DNA of 8,216 nucleotides, from IMG/VR virus record IMGVR_UViG_2698536618_000025, one strand, 5' to 3'. Below the pieces are notes generated by a model that did no database searches, was not told the DNA's origin, and saw nothing but the letters and a program-made list of their open reading frames with translations. This document shows, piece after piece, positions 1,087 through 1,650 of the stretch (position 1 is its first letter; the number at the start of each line of letters is the position of its first letter). Source of the DNA: a virus (taxonomy: Duplodnaviria; Heunggongvirae; Uroviricota; Caudoviricetes). The position numbers and the translations under genes are program-made.

Positions 1087-1575
1087 TCAGTGTTTTAGGG
1101 CTGTTGGTGGCTTAGGGATGGGAAAGCGGTTTGATGAAACATTGGTAGCATTGAGTTTTTTTACCTCTTTTTTACCAATGCTGCTGATCTTGCGGTGGGT
1201 GAACTGGGCCAGCTTAAACGCGGCATCTAAAGCCAGTTTTGGATCTGTGTCCATGTTGTCAATCAGTATCCTGCCCATTGCTTTGATGGGGTCGGGTAGG
1301 CCGTTATCCATCATCTCAATGGTGTTAATTGATGCCCGTTCCGGTGTAACTTTTTCGGTAACTTTCTTTGTAACTTTTTTCGGTTTTGTAACCTGAAAAG
1401 TTACATCAGAAGTTACAGCCTTAAGATACTTTTTCACCTCAGGATCATTGGATAGCTGCCAGCCTTTAACCCTTGCGGTCTTTTCGCTGTATCCCGCATG
1501 TATAGCGGCTTCCGTGGGATTTGCGCCCCTTGATAACGCATCAGCAAACCGCTTTTTTTTGGTCGTTAATGCCAT
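1087..1575 (-). CDS. Terminase small subunit-like protein (162 aa; N-terminal HTH of TerS type)
   Basis: ATG at 1575 with ACGAGG 7 nt upstream. N-terminus MALTTKKKRFADALSRGANPTEAAIHAGYSEKTARVKGWQLSNDPEVKKYL matches the ..F...Y...N.T.AAI.AGYS.KTA.. pattern of small-terminase HTH domains (recollection of family consensus). The 208-aa track ORF (GTG at 1713) adds a Pro-rich extension overlapping the upstream gene and is rejected. Confidence 0.6.
   Translation of the reverse strand: MALTTKKKRFADALSRGANPTEAAIHAGYSEKTARVKGWQLSNDPEVKKYLKAVTSDVTFQVTKPKKVTKKVTEKVTPERASINTIEMMDNGLPDPIKAMGRILIDNMDTDPKLALDAAFKLAQFTHRKISSIGKKEVKKLNATNVSSNRFPIPKPPTALKH
1346..1416. repeat. Phased GTAAC(T)TTT repeat array inside the terS-like coding region (4 direct + 2 inverted copies)
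   Basis: GTAAC at 1346, 1358, 1370 (exact 12-bp spacing) and 1388; inverted GTTAC at 1400 and 1412 (12-bp spacing). They encode repeated Val-Thr dipeptides (VTFQVTKPKKVTKKVTEKVT) in the linker of the protein. Confidence 0.5.
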
Positions 1576-1597
1576 GCAAAAACCTCGTTTTGAGGGG

Positions 1598-1622
1598 GTG
1601 TAACTTTTCGTGTAACTTTTTT
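1598..1622. repeat. Two further TGTAACTTTT direct repeats just upstream of the terS-like start
   Basis: GTAAC at 1600-1604 and 1612-1616, again 12 bp apart, 25-40 nt upstream of the ATG at 1575 (promoter/operator region on the minus strand). Confidence 0.45.
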
Positions 1623-1650
1623 GAAAAGCAAAATTTTCTACGAATGAGAC

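Follow-up and report, generated by a model that had tools for sequence, protein, structure and literature searches.

A GTTAC repeat array in and upstream of the small terminase gene of an Escherichia coli satellite as a putative cosB-like packaging recognition element

The small terminase locus and its repeat array

We analyzed a stretch of viral DNA of 8,216 nucleotides (IMG/VR record IMGVR_UViG_2698536618_000025), referred to as the window throughout, with emphasis on its small terminase gene (terS, encoding TerS) and on eight copies of the short word GTTAC, or its reverse complement GTAAC, which lie in and just upstream of this gene and form a candidate packaging recognition element. The window is a satellite of E. 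coli resembling the phage-inducible chromosomal islands (PICIs), ~8.5 kb in size and inserted at tRNA-Pro; a 97% identical copy in E. coli ZH48 shows the ~8.5-kb island adjoining this tRNA gene. As the ZH48 copy contains no large terminase (TerL), HNH, portal, tail or lysis genes, we classified the island as a PICI-like satellite. Of the characteristics of PICIs, it shows an integrase, an AlpA-type regulator and a replication module with an origin, all co-oriented, a size in the class of about 8–15 kb and the lack of tail and lysis genes. All genes of the window lie on the minus strand, and neither an HNH nor a TerL gene is present in it. Among 5,426 complete E. coli genomes, 220 carry at least 80% of window positions 1–2500. 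The features of the window are compiled in Table 1.

Table 1 Features of the window, ordered from the terminase region outwards.
Feature	Position	Strand	Remarks
terS (small terminase, 162 aa)	1087–1575	−	ATG 1575, stop 1087; PF03592 E = 1.2e-10, phrog_641 E = 2.6e-43
Intragenic six-copy array	1343–1420	−	Cores at 1412, 1400 (these two inverted), 1388, 1370, 1358, 1346
Non-coding pair of AAAAGTTACAC copies	1598–1622	−	Cores at 1612–1616 and 1600–1604, 12 bp apart
cosN-like core	1631–1700	−	G-run, CGATCGC, GGACACCGCCCCCCGT, CTCATTCG, A-tract
Predicted 10-nt 3' cohesive end CGCCCCCCGT	1649–1658	−	Positional homologue of the fEg-Aba01 overhang CGCCCCCCAT
Predicted helical open reading frame (ORF), 53 aa	1703–1864	−	2 nt separate its end from the G-run of the cos core
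ORF directly after terS, 53 aa	914–1075	−	Matches phrog_641 positions 89–126 (core helices)
Capsid-like gene, 308 aa	1–927	−	PF05065; homologous to the major-capsid half of a helper-type protease-capsid fusion
Iterons	2429–2641		At least 7 copies of CTCCCCACTTTT, just downstream of the RepA-type helicase gene
RepA/AAA_25 helicase	2640–4040	−	Replication module
DUF4222 gene	4037–4336	−	
AlpA-like regulator	6272–6478	−	PICI module
Integrase (int)	6975–8216	−	PICI module
Several small ORFs		−	In the window

On the plus strand, GTAAC occurs within terS at 1346, 1358, 1370 and 1388 and upstream of the gene at 1600 and 1612, and GTTAC, equivalent to minus-strand GTAAC, is found at 1400 and 1412, so that all eight sites fall within 1346–1616. 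The two upstream motifs 12 bp apart that a first-pass annotation of this DNA had reported are therefore present as described, whereas its claim of six internal motifs in exact 12-bp phasing needs adjustment: six copies are there, with spacings of 12, 12, 18, 12 and 12 bp, the phasing being exact only within two blocks of three. Its term "helical-phase array" was imprecise and is not retained, because 12 bp differs from the 10.5-bp helical repeat. Tandem Repeats Finder called 12-bp arrays at 1346–1384 and 1598–1620. The 271 bp in question hold eight of the 21 sites of the window, a density that was matched in 9 of 200,000 random placements of 21 sites, and dinucleotide shuffles of 1300–1660 contained 0.64 sites on average and at most 5, compared with the 8 observed. 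This clustering far beyond chance establishes that the repeat observation is real.

Read along the gene (minus) strand, both upstream copies and the last four internal copies have the orientation GTTAC, whereas the first two internal copies run the other way (GTAAC). A longer consensus, AAAAGTTACAC, describes the eight copies. All six internal copies encode Val-Thr, from V54-T55 through V76-T77 (codons 54–77), the linker sequence AAA-GTT-ACA reading Lys-Val-Thr; the inverted copies keep the reading frame, as GTA-ACT also gives Val-Thr. Close relatives of the island differ from it by whole 12-bp units, with P0004 lacking 4 residues (one unit) and P0003 lacking 8 (two units). Near the start of terS, ATTAAC is present at window 1565–1569.

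Architecture of TerS

The island TerS comprises an amino-terminal helical DNA-binding domain, a disordered linker and a helical oligomerisation core. The AlphaFold model shows a four-helix amino-terminal domain (helices within residues 5–58) with predicted local distance difference test (pLDDT) values above 90 for residues 11–50, followed by a linker devoid of helices with pLDDT values of 52, 49 and 61 for the blocks 61–70, 71–80 and 81–90, respectively, and carboxy-terminal helices at 96–147. The repeat array occupies the end of helix 4 and the low-confidence linker, from V54 to T77, confirming the earlier description of the internal repeats as Val-Thr repeats in the linker after the helix-turn-helix (HTH) domain. 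As judged from this model, the end of helix 4 together with the linker is the part of terS in which a DNA signal would cost the protein least.

TerS does not belong to the winged-helix family of Nu1 but to Pfam PF03592 (Terminase_2), and its closest solved domain is that of the SF6 TerS; the family profile weakly matches the SF6 DNA-binding domain (4zc3, 3zqp; E about 0.005). It is a full-length PF03592 protein with its own oligomerisation core, and not a protein of the Rpp type, i.e., a Nu1-like DNA-binding mimic that heterodimerises with the helper TerS. TerS proteins of the SF6/SPP1 type arrange their HTH motifs around a ring so that adjacent motifs are separated by roughly one turn of DNA, and a DNA-wrapping model has been put forward for them (PMC4737164). 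By analogy, the 12-bp spacing of the sites would be compatible with DNA wrapped around the outside of the HTH ring.

The cos core and the predicted ends

The cohesive-end (cos) region upstream of terS contains a core resembling a nicking site (cosN), which begins 2 nt past the stop codon of the upstream ORF. The gene-strand sequence of 1700–1631 is GGGGGGGAGTGTTCCGGCCGGAAAGTCGATCGCCCTGGACACCGCCCCCCGTCTCATTCGTAGAAAATTT. This core aligns with the intergenic region between HNH and terS of the Stx2-converting phage Stx2a_1447 and is ~75–82% identical to the corresponding regions of Shiga toxin (Stx)-converting phages. When taken as window 1622–1700, it is 80–82% identical to 78 phage records, nearly all of them Stx1a-, Stx2a- or Stx2c-converting, and the similarity to the Stx phages ends just short of the GTTAC pair. 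A homologous cos block was also detected in relatives from Hafnia, Salmonella, Morganella, Proteus, Dryocola and Acinetobacter.

Among these, the Acinetobacter phage fEg-Aba01, a member of the same TerS family, has experimentally supported HK97-type 10-nt 3' cohesive ends, 5'-CGCCCCCCAT-3' (PMC7354433). Its linear record starts with CGCACGCACAAAAAAAAT, inside the conserved cos block, and two further records, those of Escherichia phage Lys8385Vzw and Burkholderia phage Bcep176, likewise start there or no more than 11 nt away, so that three independent phage records open at this cos position. As CGCCCCCCGT of the island is the homologue of the mapped overhang, the left end of the packaged island DNA is predicted at 1648, with the molecule running to lower coordinates into terS. 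The upstream repeat copies lie at +33 and +45 from this predicted end, 41 and 29 nt before the ATG, and the intragenic array at +233 to +299. Since only 72 nt separate the cos core from the ATG, most of the array is written into the disordered linker.

The position of the first motif copy is tied to the cos core. Nine lineages allowed both to be placed, and in each of them this copy lies 31–34 nt from the TCA of the core, with 23 to 196 nt separating it from the ATG. It is found at +33 in the island and at +34 in fEg-Aba01, whose ends are mapped, and thereby sits on the first-packaged side of the genome, beside the nicking site, as does a terminase-binding site of the cosB type. This bears on the possibility that the repeats are an operator for autoregulation or late-gene control, through which TerS or another regulator would control terS transcription or translation. 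The upstream copies do lie 29–41 nt before the ATG, beside the ribosome-binding site, and in many lineages a copy overlaps the start codon. The fixed distance is kept to the cos core and not to the ATG, however, a promoter scan of 1300–2200 returned no sigma-70-like promoter, and an operator leaves the second family-conserved cluster ~200 bp inside the gene unexplained. We thus regard a regulatory function as an unlikely explanation of the array, although such a role could coexist with one in packaging.

The phage relatives of the island TerS share the gene order HNH–TerS–TerL–(protease-capsid fusion)–portal, with HNH beside terS–terL in Stx2a_1447 and in the Hafnia, Morganella, Proteus, Dryocola and L088 phages. 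The order HNH–TerS–TerL is known from the literature as the HK97-style, HNH-dependent cos arrangement. These data have to be weighed against the possibility that the array serves headful packaging as a pac site, like those of P22, SPP1 and the pac-type Staphylococcus aureus pathogenicity islands (SaPIs). A location in and next to terS, with six copies of the recognition sequence inside the gene (codons 54–77), and an HTH domain resembling that of SF6/SPP1 are typical of pac systems. Nevertheless, HNH is found next to TerS–TerL in every full phage relative examined, which is a hallmark of cos packaging in the HK97 style, 10-nt cohesive ends have been demonstrated for one family member and have a homologous sequence in the island, and the sequence data do not point to headful packaging without unique ends. 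A pac site is hence very improbable, and by comparison with its relatives the system is of the cos type. Of the proposal in the first-pass annotation that the array is a packaging signal or pac site, the comparison thus retains a DNA-level TerS recognition signal; the pac part gives way to a cos-type assignment, given the HNH–TerS–TerL relatives, the mapped 10-nt ends and the cos core at 1631–1700, which that annotation had overlooked.

Relatives of the island vary in the amount of packaging machinery that they carry. The E. coli island L003 (the TerS of L003/L004 is 62% identical) has an HNH gene and, within a longer spacer between cos and terS, seven GTTAC-type copies, and in L009 the capsid-like gene is followed by one encoding a TerL nuclease domain.

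Further readings of the region were examined and set aside. The cos core is not a hairpin signal or terminator, as its single-stranded DNA fold is no more stable than that of shuffled sequences (z = −0.88). An RNA element was likewise dropped, because an Rfam scan of 1000–2700 gave only chance matches below threshold. The likeness of the mapped HK97 TerS site CTAACCCGATTTTTT to AAAAGTTAC was too weak, and the TerS proteins perhaps belong to different families.

Conservation of the repeat word across the TerS family

To follow the word through the family, we used the DNA of TerS homologues that are 41–63% identical to the window TerS and derive from E. coli islands, from Hafnia, Salmonella, Morganella, Proteus and Dryocola prophages and from metagenomic satellite-like contigs. 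Two scans of species-representative genomes yielded 0 and 4 confirmed TerS loci; the locus diversity was drawn from TerS-encoding contigs and viral contigs. For 54 non-redundant TerS loci, the density of GTTA(A)C-type sites peaks at −60 to +30 and at +150 to +240 from the ATG, i.e., around the start codon and in the linker that follows the HTH domain, reaching 0.3–0.67 sites per 30 bp compared with 0.02–0.15 in most other bins. With 21 of the 55 pairs of adjacent sites, 12 bp is the commonest spacing within the linker, and 21 bp and 18 bp come next. The array is inherited from a large phage TerS family and is not an invention of this element.

In the GTTAC lineages, the oriented copies follow the consensus AAAAGTTACAC in non-coding and coding DNA alike, and several lineages have the first two linker copies inverted with the reading frame still kept. 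Other lineages have GTTAAC at the same two places, where the linker peptide becomes Val-Asn. The viral-contig sample added GTTAAA, read as Val-Lys in relatives of high GC content, AAGTTAAC, read as Lys-Leu-Thr in L155, and, overlapping with the start codon, (G)TTAAC, which gives Met-(Ala)-Leu-Thr. As this amino-terminal peptide is encoded by (G)TTAAC, its apparent conservation may partly reflect the DNA site. The start-codon (G)TTAAC was observed in many lineages, including L102, L107, L113, L114, L159, L164 and L179. L090 has one out-of-frame copy, translated as Arg-Leu-Thr. GTT or GTA accounts for 36 of the 38 Val codons in linker Val-Thr/Val-Asn pairs, compared with 32 of 65 Val codons elsewhere in the same genes.

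Within this comparison, the DNA word is conserved more strongly than the peptide, which resolves the homologue check proposed at the outset, whether DNA repeat or peptide is the better conserved, in favour of the DNA: the word is kept, and the peptide changes between VT, VN, VK, LT and an out-of-frame reading. Conversely, the repeats could be a by-product of a Lys-Val-Thr linker peptide selected as protein, with the upstream copies being chance or slippage debris. Consistent with that notion, the linker is basic and repetitive, and variants in unit number occur. It is at odds with the non-coding copies of the 11-nt consensus present in every GTTAC lineage at a fixed distance from cos, with Val codons that are almost always GTT or GTA, and with a peptide that shifts to VN, VK and LT, and in one copy leaves the frame, while the DNA core stays. 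We consider a protein-level origin of the repeats extremely improbable. Taken together, the comparison strongly supports the view that the repeats behave as a DNA-level recognition signal for TerS, tolerated in the linker as Val-Thr.

The two clusters also share the same variant of the word. Upstream and linker copies agree in 17 of 21 lineages (three ties resolved as matches), including all five GTTAC lineages, against a permutation mean of 6.9, although these permutation figures overstate independence because the lineages are phylogenetically related. In TerS, residues 20–21 are Pro/Ser followed by Thr/Lys in the five GTTAC lineages and Gln/Asn followed by Arg/Lys in most GTTAA lineages; this correlation with the motif variant stems from a single clade and offers a lead only.

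The E. coli phages sharing the cos core of the island have five GTTAAC copies in a non-coding stretch of 290 bp and none in the linker. In comparison, the satellites that encode TerS without HNH or TerL (the window, L007/L008 and L090) keep their own motif variant in both places. These observations are relevant for the identity of the protein that would read the sites, which might instead be the helper HNH nuclease, the helper large terminase or a host DNA-bending protein. Such a reader gains some plausibility from the phages, in which TerL and HNH follow the lineage just as closely as TerS, and from the closest solved relative, as the isolated SF6 DNA-binding domain bound pac DNA without sequence specificity in vitro (PMC4737164). 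Reading by another protein is less likely because the TerS-only satellites keep their own variant; moreover, the island variant differs from that of the E. coli phages with the same cos core, and across the family the array lies in the TerS gene itself. On balance, a reader other than TerS seems improbable.

A probable cosB-like element and a proposed packaging route

Based on these comparisons, we propose that the GTTAC array is probably the cosB-like packaging recognition element of the island, providing putative sites for the HTH domains of the island TerS just downstream of a shared cosN-like site. The island TerS is 46% identical to the Stx-phage TerS overall, with 61% identity in the amino-terminal domain and 67% in the core. 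Together with the GTTAC variant of the word, this low overall identity gives the island the look of a chimera in which the cutting site is shared and the recognition module private. In the core (residues 86–133), 32 of 48 residues are identical to the Stx-phage TerS and equally many to the Hafnia-phage TerS; the idea that the core is closer to the Stx-phage protein than the HTH domain is was therefore abandoned, domain-wise identity being uninformative. As the island encodes TerS without TerL or HNH, TerS is the sole packaging protein encoded by it that could read an island-specific variant. Since the island has GTTAC and the E. coli phages of the family have GTTAAC, the satellite TerS/cosB could address the shared cutting machinery to satellite DNA.

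The following route would result. After excision and replication of the satellite, the TerS ring would bind the two sites at +33 and +45 from the cos end as well as the six at +233 to +299, and ~270 bp of DNA would probably become wrapped or looped. TerS would then recruit the TerL and HNH nuclease of the helper, which would cut at the helper-like cosN to leave the CGCCCCCCGT 3' overhang, and packaging would proceed into terS and then around the island. Stx-converting phages are candidate helpers, as judged from their similarity to the cos core.

Several points weigh against this assignment, in addition to the relatedness of the lineages and the non-specific DNA binding of the SF6 domain noted above. 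The support for the island and its close relatives is comparative throughout. Eight close variants of the island show no substitution in any motif copy, which with only 33 variable columns is not significant by itself. Fewer than two linker sites are present in 27 of the 54 loci, and the Stx phages keep all their copies in non-coding DNA, so that the intragenic array is dispensable in principle. Finally, E. coli may also harbour a phage of the GTTAC type, which would do away with the specificity switch.

Extending the cosB-like assignment, we tentatively suggest a strategy that would be undescribed so far, for which our confidence falls somewhat short of even: E. coli satellites that parasitise Shiga-toxin-type HNH-cos phages might keep the cutting site of the helper and swap in a private TerS/cosB that differs by one base pair (GTTAC versus GTTAAC), thereby redirecting packaging. 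The address label would be dual-coded in the disordered linker of its own reader, and this arrangement would be ancient and widespread in the SF6-like TerS family.

Relation to known packaging systems

The proposed element has its closest formal parallel in the cosB of phage lambda (R3, R2 and R1, bound by gpNu1), where short repeated words likewise occupy the first-packaged side of the nicking site, ahead of the terS start. In contrast to lambda, the island TerS is of the PF03592/SF6-like and not the Nu1 type, the expected ends are 10-nt 3' overhangs generated in an HNH-dependent manner, and most sites lie inside terS. The PICI EcCICFT073 keeps a helper-like cosN and has an altered cosB that is read through Rpp–TerS (PMC6739421). 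The island similarly combines a helper-like cosN with a different cosB, but brings a complete TerS instead of an Rpp adaptor.

For HK97 cos, a single TerS site at +15 to +29 has been described (PMC11331095). Shared with HK97 are the HNH–TerS–TerL order in the phage relatives, the 10-nt 3' overhang in a relative and a TerS site some tens of bp past the cut and upstream of terS. HK97 uses one A-tract site threaded through the TerS channel, whereas the island has multiple phased copies of a distinct word and an intragenic cluster. The pac regions of SPP1/SF6 (pacL and pacR; direct repeats of boxes A, B and C) share the HTH type displayed on a ring, repeats flanking or entering gene 1 (terS) and the wrapping model; they differ in headful packaging and in an isolated domain devoid of sequence preference, as opposed to the sharply conserved word and the cos core of the island. 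Like the pac-type SaPIs, the satellite encodes its own TerS and its own packaging site, by which the helper TerL would be redirected, and its capsid homologue is comparable to Ccm of SaPIbov5. Differences to these SaPIs are the Gram-negative host, the use of cos instead of pac and the pairing of a helper-like cosN with a private cosB.

Terminase recognition repeats by the packaging site and satellites with their own TerS are known already. The searchable literature yielded no account of GTTA(A)C repeats for these phages. Apparently new, within that literature, are the specific word and its two-cluster layout, its dual coding in the TerS linker across a large family, and the pairing, in an E. 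coli satellite with an Stx-phage-like cos core, of a helper-like cosN and a private TerS/cosB. If correct, the assignment would give a large, little-studied group of cos phages, including many Stx1/Stx2 phages whose cosB is undefined, a recognition word and a site map. It would also constitute a clean natural case of dual coding, in which a DNA array is kept inside the flexible linker of its probable binder while the peptide drifts between VT, VN, VK and LT. The satellite type, carried by ~220 of the 5,426 complete E. coli genomes and appearing to pair a helper-like cutting site with a private recognition module, could then modulate the production and spread of Shiga-toxin phages. Moreover, the cos-plus-TerS cassette (~640 bp, 1087–1712) would be a compact packaging module for engineered transducing particles.

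Other features of the island

The capsid-like protein is 24% identical to residues 291–633 of the 645-residue protease-capsid fusion of Stx2a_1447 (E = 7e-21). It aligns with the capsid half only, and the protease part is without counterpart. By analogy to Ccm of SaPIbov5, it may act as a capsid-size redirector.

The 53-residue ORF at 914–1075 ends in an acidic tail. Despite its match to the TerS profile phrog_641, a BLASTP comparison with the island TerS gave no match. It may represent a mimic of the TerS core or a factor interfering with the helper. An ORF of ~50 residues was observed at the same position after terS in the satellite-like relatives L008, L009/L010 and L090. On the other side of the cos core, the carboxy-terminus EVEGLISLLGE of the ORF at 1703–1864 is conserved in the satellite-like L007 and L009, at the place where phages have the HNH gene.

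The copies of CTCCCCACTTTT are probably the iterons of the island replication origin. They are arranged as two 45-nt blocks 168 bp apart, together with an 18-nt unit every ~84 bp. An Icd-like cell-division inhibitor gene was noted in L001 (17002–17202), homologous to window ~5000–5200; such a gene is more typical of P4-like satellites and here stands alongside PICI-like int–alpA–rep modules.

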